DNA of 64,000 bases from Promethearchaeota archaeon (lineage in GTDB: Archaea; Asgardarchaeota; Thorarchaeia; Thorarchaeales; Thorarchaeaceae). This document shows, in pieces, positions 13,789 through 63,058 of this stretch. A program made the translations under genes and the position numbers. Position 1 is the first letter of the stretch. The number at the start of each line of letters is the position of its first letter. The stretch spans positions 36,191-100,190 of the forward strand of contig WJIL01000006.1 of assembly GCA_014730275.1 (NCBI GenBank). The letters are read 5' to 3'. Under the pieces are notes generated by a model. That model had not been told where the DNA came from. It searched no databases and saw nothing but the letters and a program-made list of their open reading frames with translations.

Positions 13789-14808
13789 CTAACCCCGATC
13801 GAGTAGGAAAGTGACCATGACTGACGTAATCAAGAGAATCGGGCCAAGAATAAGGCCTGCCCAGAAGAAAAGGGCGATTGCACCAAGAAGTATTAGCTTG
13901 ATTCTTGTTGCCCTATTTTTTGCCCAGTTAGGTTCTTCTATCTGCTTCAGTACAGATATGCCCAACAGCAATGGAATAGCTGCAAAAAACACTGTAATCA
14001 GAGCTTCAGATGTAAGATTCGTCTGAACCAGAACATAGATCATCTGGAAGAATAGGCTCCCCGAACTTCCAATGAATAGCAATGCCGCCAGAGACGCCAT
14101 TAGAAATGGGGCGCTCTGTAAATCGAGAACCGTGTTTCTCCGCCTTAGAAGAATCAGCAACCCACTGAAAACTATAATCAGCATCGGAGCGATGATTATC
14201 GCCAAAGACTGTCCTTCCCACTGGTAAATCAGCATTACTGAGAAGGGAACGAGAATCCATTCCTCGAGGGTAAAGGATTCCTCGTAGCCCAATGCCATAC
14301 CGAACCTTCCTCCTTGCATCGGCTCATGGACAACTACGTAATAGGTGCCAGTAGCATTTACCGTCGAATCCACATCTACCAGAAGCGAGTATGTACTGGG
14401 TGTAAACCCTTCGTATTTCGGCTCGTTTGGATAGATCCCAGCAATAACGGATATTCCCAGATCTTCCACTGTCTCAATGTAATCTGGAGGAGTTCCACGA
14501 TGTGTTATTTCAGGACCCATCAAAACTATTCCCGGTAGGAAACCTTTTGCCACAAATTGATTCGGTATGAATAGGGTGAATCTAAGTCGTGTGCCATTTT
14601 CAAGATCCAATTTGTAGTATCTGCCTTCACCACCCTCATGAATCTCCGAATAGACCACCCAGGATTTTCTGGGATTGGGAATTTCAAACGCGGTCTCCAA
14701 ACTCTCGTTTTCATCACTTTGAATGGGAACATGCCCATGAACAGTAGAAAACAGCAATCCAAATAGGATTAGTTGGGATAGTACTACAAGGGTTCGATTT
14801 CTTAACAT
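13789..14808 (-). CDS. Signal-peptide protein with extracytoplasmic beta-rich domain and C-terminal multi-TM anchor
   Basis: N-terminal hydrophobic signal 'LVVLSQLILFGLLFSTVHG', ~180-aa soluble domain, then 4-5 TM helices. Confidence 0.45.
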   Translation of the reverse strand: MLRNRTLVVLSQLILFGLLFSTVHGHVPIQSDENESLETAFEIPNPRKSWVVYSEIHEGGEGRYYKLDLENGTRLRFTLFIPNQFVAKGFLPGIVLMGPEITHRGTPPDYIETVEDLGISVIAGIYPNEPKYEGFTPSTYSLLVDVDSTVNATGTYYVVVHEPMQGGRFGMALGYEESFTLEEWILVPFSVMLIYQWEGQSLAIIIAPMLIIVFSGLLILLRRRNTVLDLQSAPFLMASLAALLFIGSSGSLFFQMIYVLVQTNLTSEALITVFFAAIPLLLGISVLKQIEEPNWAKNRATRIKLILLGAIALFFWAGLILGPILLITSVMVTFLLDRG

Positions 14809-15057
14809 TTGTTAATTATGTTTTCTGTGGTGATATATGTTGTGATTTCAGCCAAAGGAATTTGATATTATCATCAATACTCATTTGATATTTGTTTAAA
14901 CGGTATATCTTCATATGTGGGCCCAAAAGCTTGTCGTTCTACGGCTGTAAACCAGCTAATTAGTTTGCAAAACTTTACGGGGATACATATGGACGTGCAA
15001 ATTTATCGCCCATAAGAGCAAGCTAGACCAATTAAATCGCAAGGAGACCTATAGGAA

Positions 15058-15411
15058 ATGTCAGATGATGAATTTCCAAATCTAAAGACCAGTGAAGAAA
15101 TAATCAGAGAAGACTCCGCAAAACATGTGATACATGGCGGAAATGTAAAACAGGGAGGCAGGCTAGTACTAACGAACCAGAGATTGCTATTTGGTCGAGA
15201 AAGCTCATTCTTGTTCTTTTTCTTCAAGAGCACGGATACTACCGTAGATGTACCTCTTGACCAAATCAGGAAGGTTGGTACTAAGGGTATGATTAGAAAA
15301 CAGCTGCAAGTTAGTCACGAAGACAAAGGCAATTATGAGAAAGACTTCTTCCAAGTTGGCGATGTCGATGAGTGGGTAGCTAAGTTGAAAGAGGTTTCAG
15401 ACGCTGAGTAG
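15058..15411 (+). CDS. Small PH/GRAM-like domain protein
   Basis: 'VIHGGNVKQGGRLVLTNQRLLFGRES' resembles the GRAM / bacterial-PH core motif (G-x-L-x-LT-x-x-RL-x-F); ATG with an upstream 'aggag'. Confidence 0.45.
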   Translation: MSDDEFPNLKTSEEIIREDSAKHVIHGGNVKQGGRLVLTNQRLLFGRESSFLFFFFKSTDTTVDVPLDQIRKVGTKGMIRKQLQVSHEDKGNYEKDFFQVGDVDEWVAKLKEVSDAE

Positions 15412-15566
15412 AACGATGACCAGTTTTGCTGTCGGTCATTCATAAAATTTGAACTTCGTTTAATCGTTCTGTGGCAGTCCTCTAGCAGGGGCTGCCGGCC
15501 ACCTCTTTATCAACCAATGAAACTGTATCGATCATATCCAAGCAGTATCTAATAGATTATGGTTTC

Positions 15567-15986
15567 TCACTCATTTTCTTCAATAGAAACAAGCCGTTTC
15601 ATTTTCCGATAGAAGTACAAATCTAGGATGAACAGAAATGCACCCTGAATAATGACACCAATTCCATTTCCTGCAATGAATGGATCCTGCCCGAAGAACA
15701 GAAGAAGTATGACCCCGACTGCCTGATAACCCACATCTAATCCAACATTTATGAGAAGTATTTTCGCTAACTTTGATGCAGGGTCGTCTTGTTGTTTGAA
15801 AAGGGTGAACGATGCGATTACTACATCAATGAAACCCCACAACATAGCTTGGAGACCGATTCCTTGTAATAGCGATGTGGAGAACAGATAGAGTAACAAA
15901 CCAACAACCAAGCTGGAAAAAGCCCATGCAAGCAACGTCCTCCCAAGGGTCCGTGCCAGCTTCCTTTTTTCCGTCAACTCATTCAC
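15567..15986 (-). CDS. Small 4-TM membrane protein
   Basis: Hydrophobic helices throughout; no known motif. Confidence 0.4.
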   Translation of the reverse strand: MNELTEKRKLARTLGRTLLAWAFSSLVVGLLLYLFSTSLLQGIGLQAMLWGFIDVVIASFTLFKQQDDPASKLAKILLINVGLDVGYQAVGVILLLFFGQDPFIAGNGIGVIIQGAFLFILDLYFYRKMKRLVSIEENE

Positions 15987-16217
15987 CTCTCACTTACCTA
16001 GTAAGAGGCGTTCATAAAACATTGGTTGAATACCGGAGAAATGAATCCGTGTATTCATTTGCCACTGATTCAACCCAGAACCAATCAGTCATAGATTTCT
16101 GCGGAATATTTATGAATTTGTCATAGACCGTTGCAGAAAACGATTGCATAAAAGCAACCACAGGACTGGAAGTCCGACAAATCATATTACATTCATAAAT
16201 GAATCGAGGGATGGAAA

Positions 16218-17042
16218 ATGTCAACTAAAGATGAATTTACTCTGAAGCAAATTGTCACATTCTATGTTGTAACTTTTGTTTTCTCATGGGCCTTTTGGGT
16301 TCCTCAGGCGTTACATGATATGGGATTGATCCCATCTTCAGCGTTCACAGACTATCTATCTACGCCGTTCAATGTTGCTGCATGGGGTCCTCTAGTTGGG
16401 GCAGTACTGACTACACTACTTTGCGAGGGCAAGGATAGCACAATGAACCTACTCAAGAGAGGTACAATATGGAAATTCGATTGGAAACTGTATCTTGTTG
16501 TTTTTCTTCTCTTTCCAGCGATAACCATTTTATCCCTCACTATAGCGGTAGCCTTTGCGGGCTATGATCCTCTCCTCCAATGGATAGAAATGCCGTTCGC
16601 GTTACTAGTAGCTTTTGTCTACATTCTCCTATTAGGTGGCCCGCTTCAAGAAGAATTCGGATGGCGAGGATATGCGTTGCCTAGGTTACAGTCCCGGCTG
16701 GATGTTGTCAGCTCTAGTTTGATAGTTGGTCTTTTCTGGGGACTCTGGCACCTGCCATTGTTCTTCATTTCCGGTCAAGCCTACTATTACAGCCAACCGA
16801 TTTGGGGATTGATGATATCAACTATTCTCATATCGATACTCTTTGGATGGGTGTTCAACAACACAAAAGGCAGCATATTCGCATGTCTCATATTTCACAC
16901 CACATTCAACTGGTCTCACTATGCGTTCCCCATTCTTGAAAGCAATGTGGGAGCAACGATATTCCTCGGCCTCGCGTTCATATTGGCAGCCGCTGTAGTG
17001 ATTGTATCCGTTTATCAGCAAAGATTTGGAGAAGAAAATTAG
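16218..17042 (+). CDS. CPBP-family intramembrane metalloprotease (CAAX protease / Abi)
   Basis: Motif 1 'EEFGWRGYALPRL', motif 2 'LWGLWHLP', motif 3 'FHTTFN'. Confidence 0.75.
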   Translation: MSTKDEFTLKQIVTFYVVTFVFSWAFWVPQALHDMGLIPSSAFTDYLSTPFNVAAWGPLVGAVLTTLLCEGKDSTMNLLKRGTIWKFDWKLYLVVFLLFPAITILSLTIAVAFAGYDPLLQWIEMPFALLVAFVYILLLGGPLQEEFGWRGYALPRLQSRLDVVSSSLIVGLFWGLWHLPLFFISGQAYYYSQPIWGLMISTILISILFGWVFNNTKGSIFACLIFHTTFNWSHYAFPILESNVGATIFLGLAFILAAAVVIVSVYQQRFGEEN

Positions 17043-49856: not shown

Positions 49857-51275
49857 TCAATCAGACTTGCCACAGCAGGTAGACCACGGATACCTATCAA
49901 GGACTCGGTTGATTAAACCGCGGACTTTCCGTTCCTCGCTAGTGCCTTCATATACGAGTATGAGTACCTTTCCTCCGCGTGTCCGCTTGAATTTCTGATA
50001 CATTGTTTTGCTGGTATTGATTATGTCAGCAACAATCATCACATCGGCTTCGGGTAGGTCCAAGTCACGCTCTCCAACCGGGGACATAACAAGTGCGTCA
50101 ATCGGCTCATCCTTGAATGACTTCAGCACAGACCCTTTATCTCGAGTTTTTCCCGTGATTCTGGTGACTTTCATTCCCGCCTTTGACAGGAGATTTTGGA
50201 CCTGGGAAACCATTCGCAGATAGGAGGATATTATCACAGATTTATCGTATTGCTTCGCAATCTCCACAATCTTTGCTGCTTTTGGAGAGATTGTTGGAAG
50301 GACTTTCCGTAGCTCGCTAACATTGAAGTAATGCTTGAGATACTCATTATGAAACATTCTCATGAACTGTTTGGGCGGCATAGCATAGACATACTTTCGA
50401 AGGAGCAACAGACCTGAGTACCTACCTTTCAAATCATCCGAAACGGGGAGTCGTTCCAGCATGAGATGGATTCTTCGAGAATCGCCTTGAACCAATTCCA
50501 GATTCCCGGATTCTTCCAGCTGGCCAAGTATCTCCCTACGTGTATCTCGAACAAGCTCATCAATAACAATAGAAATCGATCGGATTTTCTTGTTGTGCAC
50601 CGGAACTGTTGAAATCACTGTTTTTTCAATGTATTCGTCAATATCTGTGTCATAGAGGTCTTCCATTGTCACTAGACTTGCGTTGGGTATGTGTTTCAAT
50701 AGTGTCTTTAGCTCTTTTCGAATCTCCAACTGCTCATCTGTAAATACAGCGTGCTCATCTCTCAACGTACCACTCATGCCAATTATCCGCTTTTCCCGTA
50801 GAAGAGTAAGAAGAGTAGGCCACGGAAATACCAGAGCGGTTCTTCCCCTGGTCCTTCGAACTAGTGTGTCAACTTCGTTGATAATAACTACATCAATGCC
50901 TTCTAGAAGAGTGATATCTTTCTTCAAGACGTTGGCGAGTACCTGCGGCGTAGAGATGATGACTCGTTTCTCACGGAGAATGTACTCGCGCATTCCAGAC
51001 CGAACGCGGGAGGAAAGGTCCCCAAGATCCTCTGAAAGCCCTCCATACTCAGATTTCATATAGTCAACAGTCTCGGCCAGTGAAGACGTGGAATGGACCA
51101 CAATAATGAAACGTTTGTCAGGAAAGGATTCGACAACCAGTTGATGCGTCAAGAAACGCTTTCCCAAGCCACAATCCAGCTCCACAAGCACATTATCATC
51201 TTTAAGTTCGTAGATTTGGTCGAGGATGAACTCTTGGTAACCTCGGGGTGTGTACTTGGTCTTCGTTTCTGACAT
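49857..51275 (-). CDS. SF2 helicase-like protein, Hef/FANCM/XPF-helicase-type, with degenerate ATPase motifs
   Basis: 'PRGYQEFI' (Q-motif region as in Hef 'PRIYQE'), motif I 'DCGLGKR' (GKT>GKR), motif II 'IINEVD' (DEAH>NEVD), HelicC-like C-terminus 'ITGKTRDKGSVLKSFKD...DLPEADVMIVAD', motif VI-like 'QKFKRTRGG'. ATG at 51275 sits ~30 nt downstream of a TATAAAA box. The ORF track's 573-aa version has a 101-aa N-terminal extension. Confidence 0.6.
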   Translation of the reverse strand: MSETKTKYTPRGYQEFILDQIYELKDDNVLVELDCGLGKRFLTHQLVVESFPDKRFIIVVHSTSSLAETVDYMKSEYGGLSEDLGDLSSRVRSGMREYILREKRVIISTPQVLANVLKKDITLLEGIDVVIINEVDTLVRRTRGRTALVFPWPTLLTLLREKRIIGMSGTLRDEHAVFTDEQLEIRKELKTLLKHIPNASLVTMEDLYDTDIDEYIEKTVISTVPVHNKKIRSISIVIDELVRDTRREILGQLEESGNLELVQGDSRRIHLMLERLPVSDDLKGRYSGLLLLRKYVYAMPPKQFMRMFHNEYLKHYFNVSELRKVLPTISPKAAKIVEIAKQYDKSVIISSYLRMVSQVQNLLSKAGMKVTRITGKTRDKGSVLKSFKDEPIDALVMSPVGERDLDLPEADVMIVADIINTSKTMYQKFKRTRGGKVLILVYEGTSEERKVRGLINRVLDRYPWSTCCGKSD

Positions 51276-51304
51276 GGTTCTCAATTGTTTTGAGTGGAGT
51301 ATCG

Positions 51305-51311
51305 TATAAAA
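51305..51311 (-). promoter_or_regulatory. TATA-like box (TTTTATA on - strand) ~30 nt upstream of the helicase ATG
   Basis: Reverse complement reads 'gagcTTTTATAcgatac...'; spacing consistent with a leaderless archaeal transcript. Confidence 0.3.
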
Positions 51312-51348
51312 GCTCCCGTAAGCATACTGGGAAAAAACCGGACACTGT

Positions 51349-52188
51349 TTAGATATGTTCTCCCGGTTCCGGTAGCTCCCTCTCATCTCCTTCGGCTCGT
51401 AGCGAAGGAATGCGTTCAACCTCATCTCTCGGGATGGCTTTTCCACGAACCCAGATTGTGTTATCAGGTACCACAGTATCCTTTGGAACAACCGAGGCGG
51501 CACCGATGACCACATTGTCTCCAATCTCTGCCCCCGCCAGAATAACGGCGTTTGCACCGACAGTAACGTTGTCGCCAAGCTTCACCGTTTTCAAATACAA
51601 AGAATTACCCTCGTACACATGTCCGCTTAGTATCGCATCATAGCCGAAAAAGCAATTCTGTCCGATTATCGTTCTTTCAGGATTGAAGAGCCTACCATTT
51701 CCGACAACCGTTCCCTTGCCGATTTCTGCACCGAACCAGACATGGCGGAACCTAGTATCTGTGAATATGCTAAAGAAACCGGCAAAATATGGTAGCAAGA
51801 TATAGTAGACCTCGTAGAATTCGTAAAGCAACCATTTTTCGGTTTCAGCATTGTAATATCCATCTTCTAAGAAAGGAATCCCTCGTCTGGAAAGCAAGAA
51901 TAAGCCCAGCAAGATAGCAAGGAATATACTATAAGATGTAAGGCCAATTGGAACAAAGAGCACAATGAACCAGAAGTGTTCATAGAAAAACGAAGGGAAC
52001 CAGCCAGCGAAGGTTCCAGTAAACCAAGGATGGATACTTGAAATGGGCCAAAACAGATTATTCATGAACCCCTCAATATTGTTGTACGCCCAGGCGAAAA
52101 CCATAATGCCGGGGATAGCAGCCAATGTAAGGCTAATCAGAATGGATAAAGCAAGATATATACCGTAGAGAATGGTCCTTATTTTCAC
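51349..52188 (-). CDS. Membrane-anchored hexapeptide-repeat (LbH) acyl/acetyltransferase
   Basis: N-terminal ~5 TM helices, then hexapeptide repeats 'GKGTVVGNGRLFNPERTIIGQNCFFGYDAILSGHVY...LGDNVTVGANAVILAGAEIGDNVVIGAASVV'. GTG start. Confidence 0.6.
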   Translation of the reverse strand: MKIRTILYGIYLALSILISLTLAAIPGIMVFAWAYNNIEGFMNNLFWPISSIHPWFTGTFAGWFPSFFYEHFWFIVLFVPIGLTSYSIFLAILLGLFLLSRRGIPFLEDGYYNAETEKWLLYEFYEVYYILLPYFAGFFSIFTDTRFRHVWFGAEIGKGTVVGNGRLFNPERTIIGQNCFFGYDAILSGHVYEGNSLYLKTVKLGDNVTVGANAVILAGAEIGDNVVIGAASVVPKDTVVPDNTIWVRGKAIPRDEVERIPSLRAEGDERELPEPGEHI

Positions 52189-52191
52189 TCT

Positions 52192-53559
52192 TTGAGCTCT
52201 CCGAATCTAGGGCTGATACATGAGAAACAGTACCCAGATTTGAAGGTATTCATACTCGAGGGAAACAGATATTATCCATCTGTTCACGTGTCGCTCAAAT
52301 CAGACACGCGATATGCGGAGACATTTGATGTGACATATGATGTGATAATAGCTGGAACTGGTCCCGCGGGATTGATGACTGCCGATAGGCTCTCTGAGAA
52401 AGGCATTGACACACTAGTATTGGAAAAGAGAAAACACGTTACGGATTCTCTCATGGGTGAACTGGTTACGGACAAAGCCCTCCGTCTTCTTAGAGTAAGG
52501 CCAGATTCCGAATATATAGGTAACAAGTATAAGAGAATAATCGGCGAAAGTCTGGATACAGGTTCCAATGTAGTAGTGGGAGAAAATCTCCTAGGTAATT
52601 CATATCTTCTGGACGAAGACAAATGTCAGCAACTCATGAAAGAACGTGCAGAATCAAATGGCGTCGAATTCAGGTTTTCCAGCAGGGTGGATTCGGTCAT
52701 AAAGAACAATGGACAGGTTACAGGCATACGATACAATGACAACAAGAAAGAGCGTGCAAATCTTGTCATCGGAGCAGATGGATCGTTCAGCAAGGTTTCA
52801 CAAACAGCCGGCTTCAAGACAGCACGTTGGCTACTCTCCTATGGCTATCGGTGGAAACTAGAGGATTGCAAAGATATTGATCCAACAACAGCGTACTTCT
52901 ATGTTGGCCGTGATGTAGGTCTGGGCTATATGTGGTTTTATCCACGGAGTGAAACTGAGGTGAATCTCGGAATCGGACGTGTGCCCTCGTCCAAGGAACA
53001 ATGGGAACAACTACCTCCAATGGTCGACGTATTGAAGAAATACAAAAACAAGTTCCCGGAAACCAAGGATTCCAAAATCGCATCTGTGAACGGTGGAGTA
53101 GTGCCCTGTGCAGGCATCATCCCGAAATTCACTGATGCGGGTGTTGCTCTCTGTGGCAATGCTGCGGGTCAAGTGTCCTCAATTGTCGGTGGTGGTGTCA
53201 CAACATGCTTTCATGCAGGAACGTTATTGGCAAGACATGCTGCTAGAGCTGTTTCTGAGGATGACTTCTCAAGGAAAAGCATAGAGAAATATGAGAAGGA
53301 ATACCGCAAGTCAAAGCTTGCGTGGAATATTCAGAATACTGGTGATGGTATGTGGGCTGTATCAAGGTATGCCATGTTGAATGACCCACTGGAGGCGGCT
53401 GAAATAGTCCTCAATTCTCTTGATGCTAGAACCTTGAACTCTATCATCCAAGGTGACATTTCCGTTTCTGAGGTTCTGACACTCCTTACCGAGTTCATGC
53501 CCATGATTCTACGGATTGGCAAAGGCTATCTCAAGAGCGTTGCTCTTGTTGGTCCTTGA
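52192..53559 (+). CDS. Geranylgeranyl-reductase-family FAD-dependent oxidoreductase
   Basis: 'YDVIIAGTGPAGLMTADRLSEKGIDTLVLEKRK' Rossmann FAD motif and 'LVIGADGSFSKV'. Start uncertain (TTG 52192 vs GTG 52330). Confidence 0.7.
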   Translation: MSSPNLGLIHEKQYPDLKVFILEGNRYYPSVHVSLKSDTRYAETFDVTYDVIIAGTGPAGLMTADRLSEKGIDTLVLEKRKHVTDSLMGELVTDKALRLLRVRPDSEYIGNKYKRIIGESLDTGSNVVVGENLLGNSYLLDEDKCQQLMKERAESNGVEFRFSSRVDSVIKNNGQVTGIRYNDNKKERANLVIGADGSFSKVSQTAGFKTARWLLSYGYRWKLEDCKDIDPTTAYFYVGRDVGLGYMWFYPRSETEVNLGIGRVPSSKEQWEQLPPMVDVLKKYKNKFPETKDSKIASVNGGVVPCAGIIPKFTDAGVALCGNAAGQVSSIVGGGVTTCFHAGTLLARHAARAVSEDDFSRKSIEKYEKEYRKSKLAWNIQNTGDGMWAVSRYAMLNDPLEAAEIVLNSLDARTLNSIIQGDISVSEVLTLLTEFMPMILRIGKGYLKSVALVGP

Positions 53560-53816
53560 TTTTTGGAAAAAAAACAGATACAGGAAGGAAGGGATATGCC
53601 TGCGCTGCATGAAGAAGGTCTCCCCCTCCTTCCTGCCTGCCTCGTCTGGCGAAGAACGCCTTAGCCCTAGAATTCGTATTCGATGGACGAATTCAATTCT
53701 GGGATATTCAACCAGTATATTTAATATTGCTCTTGTCAACATTAATTGAGTAAGTGTCTGTCCATAACCATACAGCACTTTATGTAATCAAATGTTGAAC
53801 GAAAGTTGGGGGAAAA

Positions 53817-54848
53817 ATGCCGATTAGCGAAGATGCCGCAGAAACGTTGGAGCTGTTAGGATTCAAGACGGGGATAGATCATGATTCACGGGCGCTGAGT
53901 CTTCTGCGAGCCATGCTCAAGAAATGTGATGAGACAGGAAAACCAATATCATTCACCACTGCTTATGAAGCCCTACTAAGAGAAGAACCAAGTGCAAGCC
54001 CCTCAAAAGCATGGATTCACAAGGTGCTCAAATCTCTTGTTGATGATGGCCTCGTAACTATGTTCGGAGAGAGCGCACATCGCAAAAGCTATCTCGCAGA
54101 TGCCAAATCTGTGATGAACGGAATCGAAGTCCTTAGAGAGAAAGCTATTGAAAGAGTCTCAGAGACAATAGATAGAAAAAAGGAAGAGCTAGAAATCATA
54201 AGAAATCTGGATTCTGCAGCCCTTGCACAAGAAATCACAGAATGGATAACTGGAAGAAGACAGGCACTAAAGGCCAGATTCATCAAGGGAATTGACGAAT
54301 TTTACAGAGTCATTGACACAACGCTATACAAGAACCTGAAATCCGGAGACGTTCTAAGAATCTGCATATTGACAATCAATCCATTCATGCATAGATTTGA
54401 GAAAAGAATCAGCAAGATGGTTGATATAGCCAGAAAGGGCGTTGAGATAAAATATGCAGTTCCAGCAGGATTGCTAGAGAGAGAGTCTTTCAAAAACAAT
54501 CAAAACCTGAGAAATCTCATAAGAGAAGGTTTGGAAAATCTGATTACACTACAAGGGCAGGGTCACAAAATAGATGCTCGGTTTTTCAACGTCAGTAAGA
54601 AGCATTATCAATTTGTGGCAGCTAATCACGAAAGCATGGCACTCATCATCACAGAAAAACCAATCACCGGAGCATGGATGAGCCGCCGTTTCAACGCAGA
54701 TCTGGTAGACTCAGCTGTTGAATCCTTTGACAAGATTTGGAACAAGTCCAAGTCTGTACTTGACATCCGGTCTTCTGATATCGAATCTTCTGGAATGGAC
54801 ATAGACTCTGAGGTCGCAATGAGCTTCATAGAGGGAGGAAAGGAATAG
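53817..54848 (+). CDS. TrmB-like protein (N-terminal wHTH, coiled coil, C-terminal domain), paralog 1 of 3
   Basis: wHTH-like 'ALSLLRAMLKKCDETGKPISFTTAYEALLR...KAWIHKVLKSLVDDGLVTM'; coiled-coil 'IEVLREKAIERVSETIDRKKEELEIIRNL'; ~210-aa C-terminal domain. Confidence 0.5.
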   Translation: MPISEDAAETLELLGFKTGIDHDSRALSLLRAMLKKCDETGKPISFTTAYEALLREEPSASPSKAWIHKVLKSLVDDGLVTMFGESAHRKSYLADAKSVMNGIEVLREKAIERVSETIDRKKEELEIIRNLDSAALAQEITEWITGRRQALKARFIKGIDEFYRVIDTTLYKNLKSGDVLRICILTINPFMHRFEKRISKMVDIARKGVEIKYAVPAGLLERESFKNNQNLRNLIREGLENLITLQGQGHKIDARFFNVSKKHYQFVAANHESMALIITEKPITGAWMSRRFNADLVDSAVESFDKIWNKSKSVLDIRSSDIESSGMDIDSEVAMSFIEGGKE

Positions 54849-55762
54849 TGACTGTCTCGGGTACAAATCAGACTTCCCTGCTTCAGCTTTATGATGTGAA
54901 TCCACAGGAGAAGAGGATGCACGTCCTGAGAGCCCTGCTTGAAGCATGTGAAAATGAAATCAGAGTCGGTTTTTCGGACATTCTGAAACACCTCAGCGGC
55001 GAGGATACTGAGAAGCCCAATGAATCATTGATTTATCGTCTGCTAAGCTCCTTGGAAGACGAGGACTTCATTGAGGTTGATAGGAGCGGCTACAGACACA
55101 GATACTATACAGATTTGAATCGAATAGAGACAGCTCTAGAGAAAAAGAAGGGAAGTGCTCTTCAAACACTTTCTGAAGACAGAATTAAACTGAAACGAAA
55201 ACTTGAGCGGCTCAACAATATCAGAATAGGTCTACTGGTCGACAGAGTCATCAAGGTGATGACTGATTCTAAATGGGATGATAGATCGCGTTTTGGCATG
55301 GGTCTCAGAACCCTACAGCTCATGGCTGATCGAGAGGTATACGCACAGGTAACTCGAGGAGATATCGTACGGATTACAGTTGATGACGTGGATCTTCAAT
55401 CTCCACAGTGGAGCGAGCGCGTCGAAGTTTTTGGGAATCTAGCTTCAAGGGGCGTAAAAGTGAGAGTCCTTTTCACTTGGCCATGTAGACAGGTAAAGAA
55501 TGCGTGGAGAAATACGACGGAAGAGTATCTAAATCTCAAAAATCAAGGCCTAGATGTCGATTTTCGTATCCGGAGCGGAGACCTGACCTATCAGATGGTA
55601 ACAAGGAATGCCGAGGTCCTAGTATTGACTGTAGCAGAGGAACCATTGGCTTCCATATGCGTTCCTAGAAACGAGAATCCAACGTTATTAGATGATGTCG
55701 TAGACAGTTTTGATGCAGAATTCACGTCATCTTACAGTTTAGGTGAAGGTGATATCCGATGA
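54848..55762 (+). CDS. TrmB-like protein, paralog 2 of 3
   Basis: GTG start overlapping the upstream stop (taGTGa); 'MHVLRALLEACENEIRVGFSDILKHLSG...SLIYRLLSSLEDEDFIEVD' wHTH-like, coiled coil, C-terminal domain. Confidence 0.5.
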   Translation: MTVSGTNQTSLLQLYDVNPQEKRMHVLRALLEACENEIRVGFSDILKHLSGEDTEKPNESLIYRLLSSLEDEDFIEVDRSGYRHRYYTDLNRIETALEKKKGSALQTLSEDRIKLKRKLERLNNIRIGLLVDRVIKVMTDSKWDDRSRFGMGLRTLQLMADREVYAQVTRGDIVRITVDDVDLQSPQWSERVEVFGNLASRGVKVRVLFTWPCRQVKNAWRNTTEEYLNLKNQGLDVDFRIRSGDLTYQMVTRNAEVLVLTVAEEPLASICVPRNENPTLLDDVVDSFDAEFTSSYSLGEGDIR

Positions 55763-56730
55763 ACAACCGAATTCATGTTTCGGAACTGTCACTTTTTGAA
55801 CTCGATATGGCATCGCGCAAAATGGATGTTCTTGAAGCTGTTCTGAAGTCGGTGGAAGGAGACTCTGCTACAGCTGATTTTGAGGAGATATTCGAAATAG
55901 TAAACGCTGAAAAAAGTAACAACCTCTCCAAGAGTTGGATCTATAAATGCCTCGGGGAACTAGAACAAGAGGGGTTCGTAGTAGTTGATCGAATAAGTAC
56001 GCCGAACAAATACATGGCTACAAAAGAGACCATAGCAAAGGCATTAGAAAGCGCCAAAAAGGAACAAATGGTCAAGCTCCACGAGAAGATAAACCAAAAC
56101 AGGAAAAATGAACAAGTTATTCAGAATACAAGCATACACAAACTTGCAAGAGAACTTGCAGGAAAATCCGACAAAGAATCAAGGGATTACTCACACCTAA
56201 TCGAGGGTAGTGAAAACGTCAGAGGTTCATTGATTTCTGAGATACTGAATGCCGCAAATCAAGGTAGTGTTATTAGAATAGCTAACTCTTCGGTTTCTTT
56301 AACGAGCAATCTCGGTGAACGGGGGCCAGTAGAAGTACGAATGCTTGAACAAGCACTAAATGGAGTTGAAATGAGAGTTCTTTTTTCTAGAGAGAACACA
56401 AGAGCAAATGAACCAAAATCGATTTCCTCGTTCATGAATGATGCACTCCCGCTATTGGGAAAAGCGGTATCCTCAGGTCATTTGAAATTGAGAGCTATTG
56501 AGGAAGAGAGAGGCACATATCGCAGCGTAATCAAAGATGAGGAAAAAATGATTCTGTACTTATCTGATACATACAAAGCAGATGCAGCCTTTTTCATATC
56601 AGATGAAGATAATGAAACACTGATTCAGCATGCCATCAAGATATTCGATGAACGCTGGGGAAACGCCGTGGATATGACAGATATGTTGAGAACAACTCTT
56701 TCAAATATCAATTATGAACCTGCAGGCTAG
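55759..56730 (+). CDS. TrmB-like protein, paralog 3 of 3
   Basis: ATGA overlap with paralog 2; 'MDVLEAVLKSVEGDSATADFEEIFEIVNAEKSNNLSKSWIYKCLGELEQEGFVVVD' wHTH-like, coiled coil, C-terminal domain. Confidence 0.5.
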   Translation: MNNRIHVSELSLFELDMASRKMDVLEAVLKSVEGDSATADFEEIFEIVNAEKSNNLSKSWIYKCLGELEQEGFVVVDRISTPNKYMATKETIAKALESAKKEQMVKLHEKINQNRKNEQVIQNTSIHKLARELAGKSDKESRDYSHLIEGSENVRGSLISEILNAANQGSVIRIANSSVSLTSNLGERGPVEVRMLEQALNGVEMRVLFSRENTRANEPKSISSFMNDALPLLGKAVSSGHLKLRAIEEERGTYRSVIKDEEKMILYLSDTYKADAAFFISDEDNETLIQHAIKIFDERWGNAVDMTDMLRTTLSNINYEPAG

Positions 56731-57809
56731 ACTACCCATTCAGGATTGTTTTCCAGCTTGGTCATTATATCAACACAGACGCTGTCAAAATCATCATACA
56801 TCCCATATTCACCGCCGGCGGCGAAGGGATGACCGCCACCGTCAAAGAGACTAGCAGCTACATCACATAGCACTTTCTCACTTCCTCTTCTGAATCCGAG
56901 CATGCCACCTTTACTCACAGTAATCAAGAGATCCGCGACGTTCAATTTTTGGCCTCCGATGTCCAGATTCTCTTCATCTGCAGCGAAGGTACCCATATCA
57001 GTGGTCGTTACCCCATTCGGAATCCTTAGAATGCGCACCAGGCGATCATGGACAACATCATCGCATTGGTGAGCTAGTGCCTTCTTCATCTTCTTTAGCT
57101 TCTCTTTTCGATAATGCTTCACTTTTCTGTTGAGAAGACGTTTTTTGAAACGTTTCTTTTTCTCATTCCATAAGGCAGATATCCCTCCATCAGCCAACTC
57201 AGAAAGCAAAGGCATCAGAGCCTTGGTGATATCCTCCTTTCGAGAGAGAGCTTCAAACCTAAGCACAGAGAGGGCATCAGTCAAAGCATTTGCTGCATCA
57301 ATCTCTCTCAGATTGAAATCCGTATCATGTGCGATCTGCGCAAGCTCGGCTGATACCTCGTCTTTGGGCATAAGAACTCTATAGGTTATCTCTGCAGCAC
57401 AATAATCTGAATTCACCTTTAAGACCGGCGAGTTGTCTAGGGACAAGACCGCTGCCGCCGACTTCTTTGTCCATTGATGATGATCGAGCCATACAACTCT
57501 GCACCCCTGAGATACAGCTCGTTTGAGCGCAGACATGATTGAATCGAGTTGATTTTCGTCCATAGCTAAATCTGTAATGACTATTAGTGTGTTCCGACGT
57601 ACAGCAACTGCTGAGAAAGTGTCAGAAAAACCGCCATAATCAGTGAGAATAACATCAAAATCCAGATTTCTTGACTTTGCATAGCGCCACACTATAGCTG
57701 CTGAATTCAATCCATCAACATCTTTATCGTGGCTTATACTGAGCAAAGAGTCCAGCCTGCGTTTCTTCCGAGTTTCTTCCGAATCTTCTGGCATAAACAA
57801 AATCACCAT
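56727..57809 (-). CDS. DHH-family phosphoesterase (NrnA/RecJ-like DHH + DHHA1)
   Basis: 'VVWLDHHQW' DHH motif, 'VTDLAMD' and C-terminal 'DGGGHPFAAGG' DHHA1 GGGH motif; stop codon overlaps that of the convergent TrmB-like gene (CTAG). Confidence 0.75.
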   Translation of the reverse strand: MVILFMPEDSEETRKKRRLDSLLSISHDKDVDGLNSAAIVWRYAKSRNLDFDVILTDYGGFSDTFSAVAVRRNTLIVITDLAMDENQLDSIMSALKRAVSQGCRVVWLDHHQWTKKSAAAVLSLDNSPVLKVNSDYCAAEITYRVLMPKDEVSAELAQIAHDTDFNLREIDAANALTDALSVLRFEALSRKEDITKALMPLLSELADGGISALWNEKKKRFKKRLLNRKVKHYRKEKLKKMKKALAHQCDDVVHDRLVRILRIPNGVTTTDMGTFAADEENLDIGGQKLNVADLLITVSKGGMLGFRRGSEKVLCDVAASLFDGGGHPFAAGGEYGMYDDFDSVCVDIMTKLENNPEWVV

Positions 57810-57932
57810 AAAAGGGACTTCGGTTTTTGACTCGATGATTTCAGTGTATCATCCTGATATTATTTGTGCTTTTCACTCATTTCGAAATGGTTTTCTGGTC
57901 AGTCAATGCATAATAAGATTGGATGACCACCA

Positions 57933-59795
57933 ATGGTAGACGGCGACCAAGTTTTGATGAGCGGAAATGAAGCAATCGCCAGGGGAGCAATTGAAGCGGG
58001 TATTAGATTCTGTGCATCATATCCAGGAACACCATCAACTGAAATCACCGAGTATGTTATGAACGAAAGCGATAGAAGAGGTATTCATGCAGAATGGTCC
58101 ACAAATGAAAAGGTGGCTCTTGAAGCCAGTACTGCAGCAAGCTGGGCAGGACTACCAGCTCTTTGTCCGATGAAGTCATTGGGATTGAATGTCGCTGCTG
58201 ATTTTCTGCTGAATGTCAACTTATCAGGAACAGGAGATGGCGGGTTAGTAATCGTGGTCTGTGATGATCCTAGAGGGCACAGTTCGAGCAATGAACAGGA
58301 TTCGCGATTCTATGCAAAAGCAGCAAGCCTTCCGCTACTTGAGCCAGAATCATGTCAACAGGCAAAGGATATGATGCCCTATGCATTTGAGATTTCCAAG
58401 AAGCATGAAATCCCTGTGATACTCAGAAGCACAACCAGATTGAGCCACACTAGGGCAGTAGTGAATCTGGGAGAAATCCCGGACATCGAGGGTGCATCAG
58501 CTCATACTGTCTCTTCAAACCTCTATAATGTACCGAGACCAGACCTAAAACACAAGCAGTTGCTCGAAAAGCTTGCTGACATAAGAGAAGAGTTCGAAAA
58601 GTCGCAGTTCAATGATTTGGATAGCTCTGAAAAGAGTCTGAGGGTCCTCACATCTGGAGTAACCAACGCTTATTCAGATGAAGCGATGAGGAAATTGAAT
58701 CTGGAAGATGCCGAGATACTGTCTCTAGCAACAACATTCCCACTTCCAGAGAAGTCAGTGATGAAGGCCATAGATTCTGCCCAGGATGTACTCTTTACTG
58801 AAGAGGGCCAACCATTTATTGAAGAGAATGTTGCGATTCTATTTGCTAGGAGAAGGAACCAGAGCCCACCCACGCTTTACGGAAAGAGTAACGGGCTGAT
58901 TGAACGCTATGGTGAGTTGAATGTAGACAAAGTGGCTCGCGCACTATCCAGAATTACTGGTCGCGAATATCAACCTGTTGCCCGTAGTTTTGATGAAGAC
59001 GCTCAACAGTCTCGAGAGCTACTGCTGGACAGACCACCAACGTTTTGCCCGGGATGCGGTCATCGGATTGTGTATTGGGCAATTAGAAAAGCAAAACAAA
59101 GATTCGGTAAGCCAGTTGTGGTTACCGGCGACATAGGCTGCTATTCAATGGGAGTTTTCTATGATTCCTCACTAGATACAATGCAATCTATGGGGTCAGG
59201 CATTGGTACCGCATCTGGATTGGGGCAGCTTGAGAGATTCGGATTTGAACAAAAAGTAATTGCGGTAGCGGGAGATTCCACATTCTTCCATGCATGCTTA
59301 CCGGGCCTTGTCAATGCTAGAAACAAAAATGCAGACTTGACATTCATTATTATCGACAATAATACGACAGCCATGACTGGATTTCAACCAAGCCCCAGCT
59401 CACATACTAAGAGAGGCGAAACATTCCCCGTGGACATAGAAAGCATGGCGAGGGCTACTCTTCCGGATTACATCGATATTGGTATTGCTTCAGACATGCA
59501 AGATACAACCAATCTTATTCATGAAAGCTTGACCAGAGATGGGCTCAAAATCATAATTCTGAAGGGAGTTTGTAGACTCGCTGAAAGAGAAGAGAGCGAA
59601 ACGGAAAGGCCGCAAATCTACGTTGATGCAGATAGTTGTATTGGAGAGAACTGCAGGCTTTGTATGACTCAATTCGGTTGCTTGGCTATTGGATGGAATG
59701 AAGAGGAGAATCATGCAGAAATCCAGAACCATCTATGCGTTCGATGCGGTGACTGTATTGACGTTTGTCCTCATGATGCAATACGGAGGAAATGA
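57933..59795 (+). CDS. iorA: Indolepyruvate:ferredoxin oxidoreductase alpha subunit
   Basis: TPP/PFOR domains ('GDIGCYSMG', 'IIIDNNTTAMTGFQPSP') and C-terminal 2x[4Fe-4S] 'CIGENCRLCMTQFGC...CVRCGDCIDVCPHDAI'; 620-aa size typical of IorA. Confidence 0.85.
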   Translation: MVDGDQVLMSGNEAIARGAIEAGIRFCASYPGTPSTEITEYVMNESDRRGIHAEWSTNEKVALEASTAASWAGLPALCPMKSLGLNVAADFLLNVNLSGTGDGGLVIVVCDDPRGHSSSNEQDSRFYAKAASLPLLEPESCQQAKDMMPYAFEISKKHEIPVILRSTTRLSHTRAVVNLGEIPDIEGASAHTVSSNLYNVPRPDLKHKQLLEKLADIREEFEKSQFNDLDSSEKSLRVLTSGVTNAYSDEAMRKLNLEDAEILSLATTFPLPEKSVMKAIDSAQDVLFTEEGQPFIEENVAILFARRRNQSPPTLYGKSNGLIERYGELNVDKVARALSRITGREYQPVARSFDEDAQQSRELLLDRPPTFCPGCGHRIVYWAIRKAKQRFGKPVVVTGDIGCYSMGVFYDSSLDTMQSMGSGIGTASGLGQLERFGFEQKVIAVAGDSTFFHACLPGLVNARNKNADLTFIIIDNNTTAMTGFQPSPSSHTKRGETFPVDIESMARATLPDYIDIGIASDMQDTTNLIHESLTRDGLKIIILKGVCRLAEREESETERPQIYVDADSCIGENCRLCMTQFGCLAIGWNEEENHAEIQNHLCVRCGDCIDVCPHDAIRRK

Positions 59796-59801
59796 TCCAA
59801 G

Positions 59802-60407
59802 TTGAAATATCATCAAAACATTCTGATAGCGGGTGTAGGCGGACAAGGCAACCTTGTTTGTGGCAAAGCGCTTGCTGAAGCATCAATAAAGGATGGTTAC
59901 AGACCTGTTGTAGGTCAGATATTCGGAGCTTCAAGAAGAGGAGGGACTGTTCAGACCCATGTAAGAATAGGCAATAGCAATTTGGGTCCACTCATACCTC
60001 GTGGTGATGTAGATGTTATTCTTGGTCTTGAACCTATGGAATCCCTAAGAGCGGCAATAGAGTACGCTGGCCCCGAAACTATTGCACTTGTAAGTGAAAC
60101 TCCTGTGCAAACAGTAGATTCATTGGCAGGAAGAAAATCATACCCCGAGATTGACGAGTTGCGGGCGTCACTATCAGCACTTGCAAGAAAAGTCTATTCG
60201 GTAAATCCCAAAGAGACACTCGAGAGTCTTGGAACGTACCGTGTCCAGAATTCGTATATGTTGGGAGCGCTATGCGGTATTCAAGCTGCTATCCTCAGCG
60301 AAGAATCTATCAAGAATGGACTCCTTGCGATAGTAGGCAGAAGCCAAACCAATACAAAGGCATTCGAAGAGGGGTTGAAAGCTGGAAAACGTGCATCTGG
60401 CAAATAA
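59802..60407 (+). CDS. iorB: Indolepyruvate:ferredoxin oxidoreductase beta subunit
   Basis: 'NILIAGVGGQGNLVCGKALAEA' PFOR-gamma-like N-terminus; TTG start 6 nt after the iorA stop. Confidence 0.8.
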   Translation: MKYHQNILIAGVGGQGNLVCGKALAEASIKDGYRPVVGQIFGASRRGGTVQTHVRIGNSNLGPLIPRGDVDVILGLEPMESLRAAIEYAGPETIALVSETPVQTVDSLAGRKSYPEIDELRASLSALARKVYSVNPKETLESLGTYRVQNSYMLGALCGIQAAILSEESIKNGLLAIVGRSQTNTKAFEEGLKAGKRASGK

Positions 60408-60760: not shown

Positions 60761-63058
60761 CTAGAATTGATTGTCTTCTTTCTTCTGTTTAGCCATTTCT
60801 TGTGCATCCTCGTACATGAGATTCGCCAGAATGGTAAACATATCTGCGACTCCTTCTCCAGTCTTAGCACTGGTTTCCATGTAGAGGAATCCTTGGTCTT
60901 CAGCCCATTTCTTCGCTTCGTATGGATCGACCGCTCGATCAGGAAGATCTATCTTGTTTCCCACAACAAGAGCTGGGACTTTCCTTCCGATAGACTCGTA
61001 TGCCTCCTCCACCCAGTTTGGAAGCTCTGCGAAGGACCTTCGTCGAGTCACGTCATAAACCAGAATGACACCAGCCGCTCCACTATAGTACATCTTTCGT
61101 ACTGCTTGGAACCGGGCCTGTCCTGCTACATCCCACACTTGTAGTTTGAGACCAACTGCATGATCTTTCTCTTCGGGGTAGATATGGGTGAGTTTGACAG
61201 CGAATTGGCTACCAATCGTGGTCTTGTAATCTTTCTCGAAGCTTCCCGTTGTATACCGATTAACAAGTGCGGTCTTACCAACAGCACCGGGTCCCACAAT
61301 CATGCTCTTCATCAGATACTCATAAGCATCTTCGGATTTGCCAGGTGGAAGAGGTTTGGGTTCCCTATTTCGTATATCTGTTACTAATTCGCTCTCTACT
61401 TGCTCAGGTTCCTCAGGAGCTGGCGGTTCTTCTGGCTCAGTTACTGTCTCCGTCATTGCCTTCAAATCGTCGCCACTGGGTCCTACAGGCTCAGTCTCCC
61501 CGAAAATATCATCCAACATTTTGGAAGCTGCTTCAAGTTGCTGTTTCTCACTTTCAGTATACGCCGATTCTGTTTCAGCTTCAGGCTCCGTTGTCACACT
61601 ACCAAAACCTGTACCCTCCGACCTCACAGAAGAAGACGATTCAACAGGTGCTTCTTGAGGTTGAGAGGGGGTATCAAGGGTCACTTCAGGAGCAGATGCT
61701 GGAGAAGCCTTTGCTTCGCCTTCTTTTACTGAAATAGCTGTCTCAGGGGTCGTGACCTGTTTGACGTTTCCGGATTGATCAGTCCACATCAACACAATTG
61801 GGCGAATAACAACCGTTCCCTCTTCAAGTGGTCTTAAATGAACTTGAATGGATTTACATTCTTGGGAACCAAGATCGAAAGCCAACTCTTTGGGTTCTAC
61901 TTCCATGTTGTCTTTGGGAAACCAATAGATTTTGCCTTTGATTCCCGAGATTGATTTTTCGGTAGCATTGGTGACTGTTACTTCTCCTTTCAGCTCTTCA
62001 CCAGCAGCAGCTTCACGACTAACCTCAAAACGTGGAATTATCTCATAGAGACCTTCGAGGACCTTGAGAGGGCCGTTTGAAACTCCAACTAGGACCTCTT
62101 TGCGTTCATCTCCACCTGCGTCTCCTACACTTATGGAAAGAATCTTTCTTCCAATATCAGTCACAGCTAGCTGCTTCAATTCAGCCATGTACAGGCTATA
62201 GAAAACAATCTCTTGTGTGGCGTTGGCTACAATTATCTCGTCCATATGATCAGCATTTATCTCAGCCATCCGAATCGACAATGCGTCGACATGCTCGAGT
62301 TTGGAGAACATATCAAGCTGACTTTCTTCATTGCGATATATCCTGATAGAGCCATCATGAGTCACAACTCCGAGCTCCATCTTTCGGTCTCCAAGAATAT
62401 CACCTGCTGCTAATGAGATAACAGGGCTTGGGAGATCAAGCACCGCAATTTCATCGGCTGAATTTCCTCTAATCTTGAAAACACGCAATGTTTTGTCACG
62501 ATTACCAATGACTATCTCATCTATCTCATCGCCAATTACATCGCAGGTACCAATACAGAGAGGCATATCTTCGAGGGTGTAGCAAACGAGTTCTTCCAGG
62601 TGATTATCAGCACCCATCTTGAAAACTCTAAGAGTGGAATCACTTCCACCTGCTATGATTTCGTTCTTATCATCACCAGTAACATCAGTGACTTCCACAG
62701 TAGTTACGAAACGGCCAATAGGCTGTTCCGCGATAAGCTCAATTTGACCACTAGGAGCGTATCGATAAACTTGGAGTGTACCCGTTTCTCCGCCTGCACC
62801 ACTTACACTTCGACCAACAACGATTTCCATTTGTCCGTCATTGTTCGCATCTTCAACGCTTATTGAGAGGATGCTCCCTTGAACAGATACCTGAGCAAGG
62901 AAGTCTAGGTGATCTGTATCGGCTTTGTATAACCGGAGAATCCCGTCTCGTCCACCAGTGCAAATCTCCGGCCTCGTTGAGCCTGTCAGATCACCTGTAG
63001 CCGAGGCACTAGTGCTAGTATCGTCTTCCACTTCAAAGAGTATCTTAGGCGAATCCAA
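60761..63058 (-). CDS. Multidomain small GTPase: N-terminal FG-GAP-type beta-propeller + Ig-like domain + acidic S/T/P/E-rich linker + C-terminal Rab/Ras-like GTPase
   Basis: Six or more blades with 'D-x-(N/T/G)-G-D-x-x-x-E-(I/L)-(V/I)-x-G' FG-GAP-like motifs ('DANNDGQMEIVVG','DVTGDDKNEIIAG','DVIGDEIDEIVIG','DAGGDERKEVLVG'). GTPase G1 'GPGAVGKTALV', G2 'YKTTIG', G3 'WDVAGQARF', G4 'GNKIDL', G5 'ETSAKTG'. No C-terminal Cys for prenylation. TTG start. Confidence 0.8.
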   Translation of the reverse strand: MDSPKILFEVEDDTSTSASATGDLTGSTRPEICTGGRDGILRLYKADTDHLDFLAQVSVQGSILSISVEDANNDGQMEIVVGRSVSGAGGETGTLQVYRYAPSGQIELIAEQPIGRFVTTVEVTDVTGDDKNEIIAGGSDSTLRVFKMGADNHLEELVCYTLEDMPLCIGTCDVIGDEIDEIVIGNRDKTLRVFKIRGNSADEIAVLDLPSPVISLAAGDILGDRKMELGVVTHDGSIRIYRNEESQLDMFSKLEHVDALSIRMAEINADHMDEIIVANATQEIVFYSLYMAELKQLAVTDIGRKILSISVGDAGGDERKEVLVGVSNGPLKVLEGLYEIIPRFEVSREAAAGEELKGEVTVTNATEKSISGIKGKIYWFPKDNMEVEPKELAFDLGSQECKSIQVHLRPLEEGTVVIRPIVLMWTDQSGNVKQVTTPETAISVKEGEAKASPASAPEVTLDTPSQPQEAPVESSSSVRSEGTGFGSVTTEPEAETESAYTESEKQQLEAASKMLDDIFGETEPVGPSGDDLKAMTETVTEPEEPPAPEEPEQVESELVTDIRNREPKPLPPGKSEDAYEYLMKSMIVGPGAVGKTALVNRYTTGSFEKDYKTTIGSQFAVKLTHIYPEEKDHAVGLKLQVWDVAGQARFQAVRKMYYSGAAGVILVYDVTRRRSFAELPNWVEEAYESIGRKVPALVVGNKIDLPDRAVDPYEAKKWAEDQGFLYMETSAKTGEGVADMFTILANLMYEDAQEMAKQKKEDNQF

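Follow-up and report, generated by a model that had tools for sequence, protein, structure and literature searches.

TrmBL2 of Thermococcales is an archaeal chromatin protein and a global repressor, while TrmB and TrmBL1 are sugar-sensing regulators of Thermococcales and haloarchaea. To our knowledge, TrmB-type proteins are single-gene homo-oligomers. [quoted passage not shown] TrmBL2 is also the most conserved member of the TrmB family, with 82-92% identity among Thermococcales, in a family whose proteins are normally homodimers or homotetramers (PMC4158304), and it is an abundant chromatin protein (PMC4158304; PMC4877046). In this study we describe three consecutive genes, A, B and C, from a 64-kb stretch of archaeal DNA (the window) that share this architecture and that, at a probability we would put at roughly one half, encode a hetero-oligomeric, autoregulated TrmBL2-like DNA-binding complex.

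All three genes lie on the plus strand: A at 53817-54848 (343 aa, ATG start), B at 54848-55762 (304 aa, GTG start) and C at 55759-56730 (323 aa, ATG start). A sequence-only reading had proposed three consecutive coupled ORFs with stop/start overlaps, and we find them at exactly the positions that it gave. Read base by base, the A/B junction is TAGTG, in which the TAG stop of A and the GTG start of B share a single G (1-nt overlap), and the B/C junction is ATGA, a 4-nt overlap. SD-like sequences precede both internal starts, GGAGGGAGG upstream of B at the A/B junction and GGTGAAGGTGA upstream of C at the B/C junction. The tight spacing within the trio is kept in about 40 loci; A and B are often separated by a gap of 10-25 nt and do not overlap. 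A, B and C are thus a conserved, tightly coupled operon, and no further copy of the family occurs elsewhere in the 64-kb window.

The three proteins had been called paralogous at the N-terminus. Their similarity is indeed far above chance (BLASTP E=9e-26 for A/B, 4e-15 for A/C and 2e-17 for B/C) and extends over the full length, the pairs being colinear over about 300 residues at 22-27% identity. Of the three paralogs, C has diverged most. The family comprises 177 cluster representatives that fall into exactly three orthologous, monophyletic groups, with the same gene order in 33 species. Among the full-length representatives 44 belong to A, 49 to B (whose orthologs include P0016-P0025) and 55 to C, none is ambiguous and there is no fourth group. 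Loss, duplication or relocation of a single member was seen in 0 of the 33 species. In one lineage A and B are joined in a natural fusion (P0174/P0027), which is present in several independent assemblies. The sequence-only reading had proposed to look for the arrangement in other Asgard MAGs; the trio occurs in Thorarchaeota-type MAGs only: all taxon-specific source names that we saw were Thorarchaeota, except for the Lokiarchaeota label that the window MAG itself carries and one Hermodarchaeota label. Literature searches found no published description of such a trio. A, B and C are best explained as three ancient paralogs in a strongly diverged branch of the TrmB/TrmBL2 superfamily that is confined to this lineage.

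What kind of proteins are these? AlphaFold models of A (pLDDT 80.8) and C (pLDDT 76.5) are alike and show a winged helix, a long helix and an alpha/beta domain in this order. In A the winged helix covers about residues 25-93 (nt 53889-54095, plus strand), the long helix residues 96-129 and then 133-145 (nt 54102-54251, plus strand) and the alpha/beta domain, which resembles a PLD pseudo-enzyme, residues 154-310 (nt 54276-54746, plus strand). After the PLD-like domain the models contain only one or two short helices (residues 310-343 of A, 302-323 of C). The layout that had been suggested from the letters, a winged helix, a helical segment and a C-terminal domain, is thus seen in the models of A and C, with the correction that the last domain has about 160 aa and not ~200. 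It is the layout of the TrmB/TrmBL2 structural superfamily, with a winged HTH, a long dimerisation helix and a PLD-like alpha/beta domain in the same order. Among PDB structures TrmBL2 is the closest for A and C alike; the six best Foldseek matches of C are all TrmBL2 (E 8e-13 to 3e-11), and for both models TrmBL2 outscores TrmB by 2 to 6 orders of magnitude.

At the level of sequence this relationship is hardly visible. The TrmB winged-helix model PF01978 reaches 16.9 bits at best (E 0.0057, C only) against a gathering score of 25.6; 11 of 25 family members give a match, none of which reaches this score; PF11495 (Regulator_TrmB) gave no match at E<=1 in the 25 members. PLDc_2 matched weakly in 6 of the 25 (best E 0.0041). 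Pfam, NCBIfam and PADLOC returned nothing above threshold for the trio, and HMMER profiles searched against PDB sequences gave just a weak match to the Hop2 winged helix (2mh2, E 0.0055). Hence the TrmB-like identity proposed from sequence holds for the fold and the domain order and not for the two Pfam models. As the trio cannot be detected from TrmB by sequence, any transfer of function is made through the fold alone. The idea of a paralog array sensing different ligands lost its structural basis, since the proteins have the shorter TrmBL2-type layout and no sugar-binding subdomain. A defence system, which we also considered, was rejected.

The PLD-like domain does not contain the HKD motif HxK(x)4D(x)6G(G/S)xN. 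On the equivalent strand A has HYQFVAAN, B has TYQMVTRN and C has TYRSVIKD, with an invariant Tyr in the expected position of the His and no Lys. The best explanation, judged from these residues, is that the domain is catalytically dead in all three proteins. Weaker structural matches were obtained with MITD1, a PLD-like membrane binder, and with the winged helices of Hop2, cullin and Vps36. These matches, together with the fact that winged helices also mediate protein-protein contacts, could be taken to favor a role without DNA, be it in an ESCRT-II-like or another winged-helix scaffold. We regard this reading, even when it is widened to include the three ORFs being fragments of one frameshifted gene, as extremely improbable. 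Neither tandem winged helices nor matches to the EAP30/Vps25 models were found, which led us to reject ESCRT-II, and the TBPIP and Mnd1 Pfam models have no match in the trio family. The fragment version, against which the sequence-only reading had already argued, is ruled out by the 33 species in which the three genes remain separate and of full length.

If A, B and C bind DNA, A might do most of the reading. Across 33 species its recognition helix (K.W.H.VLK.L) and its wing (RK.Y) show a conservation of at least 90% and are the best-conserved parts of a protein that as a whole diverges fast. The head of A is also the most basic and best conserved of the trio (median pI of the winged helix 9.7). 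The winged helix of B is near neutral and its head uncharged, and conservation is lower in B and C than in A, so that DNA contact does not seem to be required of all three heads. The recognition helices themselves differ (WIHKVLK, LIYRLLS and WIYKCLG). Together with the homodimers or homotetramers that are normal for TrmB-family proteins and with the frequent gap of 10-25 nt between A and B, this difference might suggest three independent homodimeric transcription factors, each with its own DNA targets or signals, that are co-transcribed only for co-regulation. We consider this somewhat unlikely. Independent factors sit poorly with a set of exactly three groups at about 1:1:1, with the constancy of copy number and place of every member in all 33 species, with the existence of the A-B fusion, with a near-neutral head in B and with the absence of the TrmB ligand-sensing domain. 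The fixed 1:1:1 trio and the natural fusion make a heteromeric assembly, as it had been suggested before, plausible.

The structural proximity to TrmBL2, itself an abundant chromatin protein, and the lack of a sensor domain raise another question: could the trio be a heteromeric nucleoid-associated protein of the TrmBL2 type that coats DNA non-specifically, with the conserved box upstream of the operon (see below) being a strong or regulated promoter element? This is unlikely in our view. The three proteins diverge at 2-4.5 times the rate of the neighbours (Kimura distance 0.9-1.2 vs 0.26-0.52), whereas TrmBL2 is 82-92% identical among Thermococcales, and the whole proteins are acidic to neutral (pI 5.7-6.6). 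With three paralogs at these distances, the trio has neither the conservation nor the single copy of a TrmBL2-type chromatin protein. A mirror-tree analysis of co-evolution (partial Mantel; A, B, C and DHH) was significant, but so were the negative controls GGR vs IOR and GGR vs A, and the test is therefore non-discriminating.

Upstream of A lies a 25-nt box that is specific for the operon, TTGTCAACATTAATTGAGTAAGTGT (53733..53757, plus strand), whose common form in Thorarchaeota is TTGTATACAGTCATAAAGTTAGTAA. Despite the fast divergence of the proteins the box hardly varies; it is single in each locus and always 63-104 nt upstream of gene A, and in an alignment from box to start codon 14 of the 17 invariant columns are inside the box. 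In metagenomes the degenerate box pattern has 20 exact matches, each of them directly upstream of an A-type gene; when the full box was used to look for a regulon, no further target emerged, either among these 20 matches or elsewhere in the 64-kb window. Beyond TGT-NN-ACA the box has no clear two-fold symmetry. A TATA-like element, TTTAATAT (53720..53727, plus strand), lies 5 nt upstream of it and might serve as promoter; in Thorarchaeota loci AT-rich counterparts (ATATATATAT, TTAAATAT or TTATAA) are found 5-12 nt upstream of the box. At this distance downstream of the TATA element the box spans the expected transcription start, which makes it a candidate operator. Alternatively, it could act as a promoter or initiator element, function in the leader RNA or be bound by another factor.

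Between the box and gene A, other loci have a conserved inverted repeat (TACTCA-N4-TGAGTA), at the place of which the window has a weak 4-bp hairpin, TCAA-ATG-TTGA (53788..53798, plus strand). Within it, AATGTTGA (53791-53798) is complementary to TCAACATT in the box (53736-53743). The helix of the inverted repeat is 92% paired, compared with 30-38% when the partner is slid, and so is register-specific; covariation was non-significant, and an RNA hairpin is a candidate only. Rfam contained no known RNA family for 53400-58000. The leader also has a conserved oligo-T. The start of A is preceded by a Shine-Dalgarno-like GGGGG (53806..53810, plus strand), replaced in other loci by AAGAGG or GGAGG.

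Taken with the paralogs and their fold, the box suggests how a hetero-oligomeric, autoregulated complex might work. One translationally coupled transcript would yield A, B and C in fixed proportion, and the three would most probably join in one hetero-oligomer, as the dimer-of-dimers of TrmBL2 suggests. Each subunit would contribute a DNA-binding head of the winged-helix type, a long helix of the dimerisation type and a single, catalytically dead PLD-like domain, with A supplying the main, basic, sequence-reading head. We infer that such a complex most probably binds the operon-specific 25-bp box and, when seated on it, would repress its own synthesis.

On the 3' side the trio meets a DHH/DHHA1 phosphoesterase of 360 aa (56727-57809, minus strand) that converges on C. 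The C/DHH junction is CTAG, where the two convergent stops give a 4-nt overlap of the genes. The Pfam DHH model scores 40.6 bits (cutoff 28.1, E=3.7e-10) and the DHHA1 model stays sub-threshold at 12.8 bits, but DHH domain motifs I-IV and the GGGH of DHHA1 are present: the translation contains DxD (HDKDVDG), ITDL, DHH (WLDHHQW), HDTDF and GGGHPFAAGG. The protein is NrnA-sized with intact catalytic motifs, and both its proposed identity and its convergence on C were borne out. DHH adjoins C in all loci with enough sequence, and in about half of the loci the 3' ends of C and DHH overlap by 4 nt; the other neighbours, however, are kept as well, and the adjacency is no better conserved than the whole 12-kb neighbourhood. 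As this neighbourhood is equally syntenic, the adjacency is no specific sign of a functional link.

PLD folds bind phosphodiesters. The PLD-like domain has six polar residues that are invariant in all three paralogs (R181, R197, R255, Y264, N293 and D305). With the constant adjacency of DHH and its frequent 3' overlap, this might hint at a signalling module, in which the pseudo-PLD domain would bind pAp, a cyclic or linear dinucleotide or a nanoRNA at a level set by DHH, and DNA binding would be modulated. The general synteny of the 12-kb neighbourhood speaks against such a module, as does the convergence of the genes, which means that trio and DHH are not co-transcribed; we find it very improbable. 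Quite improbable, too, is a Thorarchaeota-specific circuit in which an obligate asymmetric hetero-oligomer places three different DNA-reading heads on an asymmetric 25-bp box and its pseudo-PLD domains sense a phosphorylated nucleotide controlled by DHH. If it were true, it would be the first heteromeric TrmB-type complex.

The trio family is invisible to searches of Pfam, NCBIfam and PDB sequences and is therefore annotated as 'hypothetical' in every Thorarchaeota genome. With a fold, a definition of the family by three groups and a candidate DNA target in the 25-bp box, the hetero-oligomeric complex can be tested in vitro without a cultured host. Should it turn out to have a major part in DNA organisation or global regulation, Asgard chromatin and transcription would gain a lineage-specific component. 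At present the trio does not resemble a eukaryotic signature protein.

In conclusion, how does the trio compare with known systems? Like ESCRT-II (Vps22, Vps25, Vps36) it consists of several winged-helix proteins encoded together, and Hop2/Mnd1 have no counterpart of its C-terminal PLD-like domain. In contrast to Nuc, NucT and Zucchini and to the pseudo-PLD proteins FAM83 DUF1669 and MITD1, its PLD-like domain is joined to a DNA-binding head, and it is without the HxK(x)4D catalytic motif of single-domain PLD enzymes. TrmB and TrmBL1 (PF01978 + PF11495; PDB 3qph, 2f5t) have a second, beta-barrel sugar-binding subdomain that is absent from the trio. Closest in structure to A and C, TrmBL2 (PF0496/TK0471, Thermococcales; PDB 5bpd, 5bpi, 5box) shares with them the winged HTH, the long dimerisation helix and a single PLD-like C-terminal domain, and it likewise has no sugar-binding subdomain. 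Yet identity in structural alignments is only 13-18% and there is no HMMER match; the trio proteins have 300-345 aa against 264 aa in TrmBL2, are extended at the N-terminus and have a longer helical linker. TrmBL2 is highly conserved, slow-evolving and a non-specific DNA binder, whereas the trio is fast-evolving and restricted to Thorarchaeota. Above all, TrmBL2 is the product of a single gene and forms a homotetramer, whereas the trio consists of three obligate paralogs in an operon. A coupled trio that is strictly kept across a class, and of which two members have been naturally fused, suggests a TrmBL2 architecture in heteromeric form.

Three paralogous winged-helix genes, here called A, B and C and jointly the trio, lie in tandem on the + strand at 53817-54848 (343 aa), 54848-55762 (304 aa, GTG start) and 55759-56730 (323 aa), and a DHH/DHHA1 phosphoesterase gene (DHH; 56727-57809, - strand, 360 aa) converges on C. 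At base level, A and B overlap by 1 nt in TAGTG (preceded by GGAGGGAGG), B and C by 4 nt in ATGA (preceded by GGTGAAGGTGA), and C and DHH meet in CTAG, where the two convergent stop codons give a 4-nt gene overlap. By BLASTP (9e-26, 4e-15 and 2e-17 for the three pairs; 22-27% identity) and alignment, the proteins are full-length colinear paralogs. ORF list, base-level reads and BLASTP hence bear out the ORFs, overlapping junctions, paralogy and convergent DHH gene described in the sequence-only reading. No further family member was found elsewhere in the 64-kb window, which has uniform G+C content throughout.

None of the curated sequence models in Pfam, NCBIfam and PADLOC recognises A, B or C. 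The same reading had favoured the TrmB family, a proposal that Pfam did not support: PF01978 peaked at 16.9 bits, short of its 25.6-bit cutoff, and PF11495 gave no match. All other winged-helix hints in Pfam, including weak MCM4_WHD and PadR matches, were sub-threshold as well, and the NCBIfam and PADLOC scans returned nothing. When 25 family members were scanned singly, TrmB appeared below threshold in 11 and PLDc_2 in 6; the sole match of HMMER profiles to PDB sequences was a weak one to the Hop2 winged helix (E 0.0055). An ESCRT-II identity, also considered, was rejected. Where sequence models fail, we regard the predicted structures as decisive. In the AlphaFold2 model of A (pLDDT 80.8), residues 25-93 fold as a winged helix, 96-129 and then 133-145 as a long helix, and 154-310 as an alpha/beta domain. 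Its top Foldseek matches in the PDB are TrmBL2 (5bpi, 5box, 5bpd; E 1.6e-9 to 1.9e-8), followed by full-length TrmB (3qph, 8e-8), the TrmB effector domain and PLD-superfamily folds. Even for C, the most divergent paralog (pLDDT 76.5), the best six matches are all TrmBL2 (8e-13 to 3e-11), with TrmB at 1.6e-6. TrmBL2 is a tetrameric chromatin protein of 264 aa (PMC4877046; PMC4158304). Since the chain ends shortly after a single PLD-like domain, the window proteins have a TrmBL2-type layout.

The family is narrowly distributed. A profile search run exhaustively over 1.84 billion representatives yielded no more than 177 proteins (E<=1e-30 for 121) and no tail into other families. Wherever the source names of sampled members are taxon-specific they read Thorarchaeota, apart from the Lokiarchaeota label of the window MAG and one Hermodarchaeota-labelled locus; a close relative is named only 'Promethearchaeia' (P0005, P0014, P0024) and a few sources only 'Promethearchaeota'. 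The Thorarchaeota names extend to the most divergent members. Among the latter, P0090, P0153 and P0170 are encoded next to one another (QXS20_02705, 02700, 02695). A itself matches a hypothetical protein (GF309_00830) of the Lokiarchaeota-labelled MAG at 100% identity. Scanning GTDB species genomes with orthologs of A gave 40 loci, 32 of them labelled Thorarchaeota, and the closest species-level relative, L038, carries that label too, with 62-87% protein identity and identical gene order. The label 'Candidatus Lokiarchaeota archaeon' is probably imprecise. Every locus with enough sequence shows A, B, C and then the convergent DHH. The three gene positions form three monophyletic groups (33 species), and full-length representatives sort into 44 A, 49 B and 55 C without ambiguous cases; the triplication is therefore older than the diversification of these genomes, and each member has since been retained in place and in single copy.

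A natural in-frame fusion, found in NCBI, ENA, Logan and JGI data, joins a complete A (residues 3-321) to a complete B (349-649) through a linker of ~28 aa (P0174, 655 aa, RDE11875.1, Thorarchaeota C4K47_09255; P0027, 624 aa). The A-type recognition helix of the fusion departs from KAWIHKVLKSL and reads KATAKRTLRTL. The fusion, the translational coupling within one operon, the strict 1:1:1 trio and the fact that family members are obligate dimers or tetramers via the long helix are the reasons why we consider a hetero-oligomeric, TrmBL2-like DNA-binding complex of A, B and C the best-supported reading, on circumstantial evidence; three independent regulators would be one alternative.

The region upstream of A is non-coding and conserved better than the proteins themselves. 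Across loci this leader (53720-53816; 7900-8022 in the related locus L001; equivalents in L003-L062) runs from a TATA-like element through a 25-nt box, a short variable stretch, an inverted repeat and an SD-like motif to the start codon. The box, TTGTATACAGTCATAAAGTTAGTAA (TTGTCAACATTAATTGAGTAAGTGT at 53733-53757 in the window), begins 5-12 nt downstream of the TATA-like element and is present in a single copy at each locus, as it is in the whole 64-kb window. In 241 million metagenome records a degenerate 24-mer matched at 20 loci, and in all 20 the box immediately precedes an A-type gene. Because the TATA boxes of archaea have their centre near -26, the box is expected to span the transcription start, a placement that would correspond to a classical archaeal repressor site. 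At the end of the variable stretch is a conserved run of T (oligo-T), which may be a terminator or attenuator signal of the archaeal kind. The inverted repeat, TACTCA-N4-TGAGTA, lies just before the SD-like motif; its pairing reaches 92%, compared with 30-38% when slid as a control, and it was independently predicted by RNAalifold and contains many G-U cells, which would break a DNA palindrome. Covariation was not significant against shuffles, so it stays a candidate 5'-UTR hairpin. The window copy is reduced to a stem of 4 bp, the 3' arm of which is complementary to a segment of the box. Rfam gave no match in 53400-58000. Just past the stop codon of the geranylgeranyl reductase gene (GGR), at 53581-53635, a 13-nt inverted repeat (CAGGAAGGAAGGG / CCCCTCCTTCCTG, 29-nt loop) could represent either a terminator or an inserted element; the GGR-to-A intergenic region containing it measures 257 nt, compared with a ~70-nt spacer in most Thorarchaeota loci.

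The best-conserved parts of A are its recognition helix (K.W.H.VLK.L) and wing (RK.Y..DAK), and the end of its PLD-like domain is likewise well conserved. Winged-helix pI is basic in A (9.7), less so in C (9.1) and neutral in B (6.9). The basic, highly conserved head of A probably recognises the operon-specific, equally conserved box, which would make the operon autoregulated. Beyond this, the complex could have extra targets via more degenerate sites or a part in global DNA organisation; non-DNA roles of the trio are a competing explanation. Identity to the window proteins is 26-38% for the trio and 50-75% for its neighbours, with mean Kimura distances of 0.91 (A), 1.22 (B) and 1.21 (C) against 0.26 for GGR, 0.40 for DHH and 0.52 for the flanking IOR-alpha. 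In the same genomes the trio (53817-56730) evolves 2-4.5 times faster than every neighbour (49857-53559, 56727-60407) and is never lost. Relaxed constraint, co-evolving interfaces and positive selection are candidate causes. A non-specific chromatin protein would share the fold of TrmBL2, but such fast evolution argues against this reading and against a TrmBL2-like universal chromatin role.

DHH is a genuine phosphoesterase of NrnA-like size in which every catalytic motif is present; it adjoins C in all loci, with the 4-nt 3'-end overlap in about half, and trio and DHH might therefore be taken for a nucleotide-sensing module. However, helicase, hexapeptide transferase, GGR, A, B, C, DHH, IOR-alpha and IOR-beta form one equally syntenic block in all loci, so the adjacency is background synteny and unusable as evidence of a functional link. 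Within the block, the helicase ORF (49857-51578, -; DEAD/Helicase_C, XPB/RAD25-like C-terminal match) overlaps the hexapeptide-transferase ORF (51349-52188, -) by ~230 nt; its mechanical TTG start is therefore probably too far upstream, the true one likely lying near MSETKTKY. A 765-aa protein at 60761-63058 (-), kept downstream of IOR in L001 and a second related locus, L002, ends in an Arf/Ras/Roc small-GTPase domain and also bears beta-propeller signatures of FG-GAP/BBS2/BBS7-like type, matched faintly or weakly by Pfam in the L001 ortholog (14612-16921); it resembles a eukaryote-like GTPase fusion of Asgard archaea.

In conclusion, the trio is a lineage-specific, triplicated TrmBL2-like system, probably heteromeric, that has a promoter element of its own. 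Literature searches found no paper describing it. We see it as a solid, testable addition to Asgard DNA-binding proteins rather than a conceptual surprise, with no evident link to eukaryotic signature functions. Compared with known systems, A, B and C fall outside the TrmB family by sequence (PF01978, PF11495). They also lack the hallmark of the PLD superfamily, as the catalytic HxK (HKD) motif is absent from the alignments and an invariant Tyr, in YQ or YR contexts, occupies the expected His position. They depart from TrmBL2 in its single copy and high conservation. The TrmBL2 tetramer engages ~25 bp (PMC4877046) and the box here has 25 nt, which we take as a parallel only. In fold and domain order the three proteins match TrmBL2, and by that measure they would work like it.
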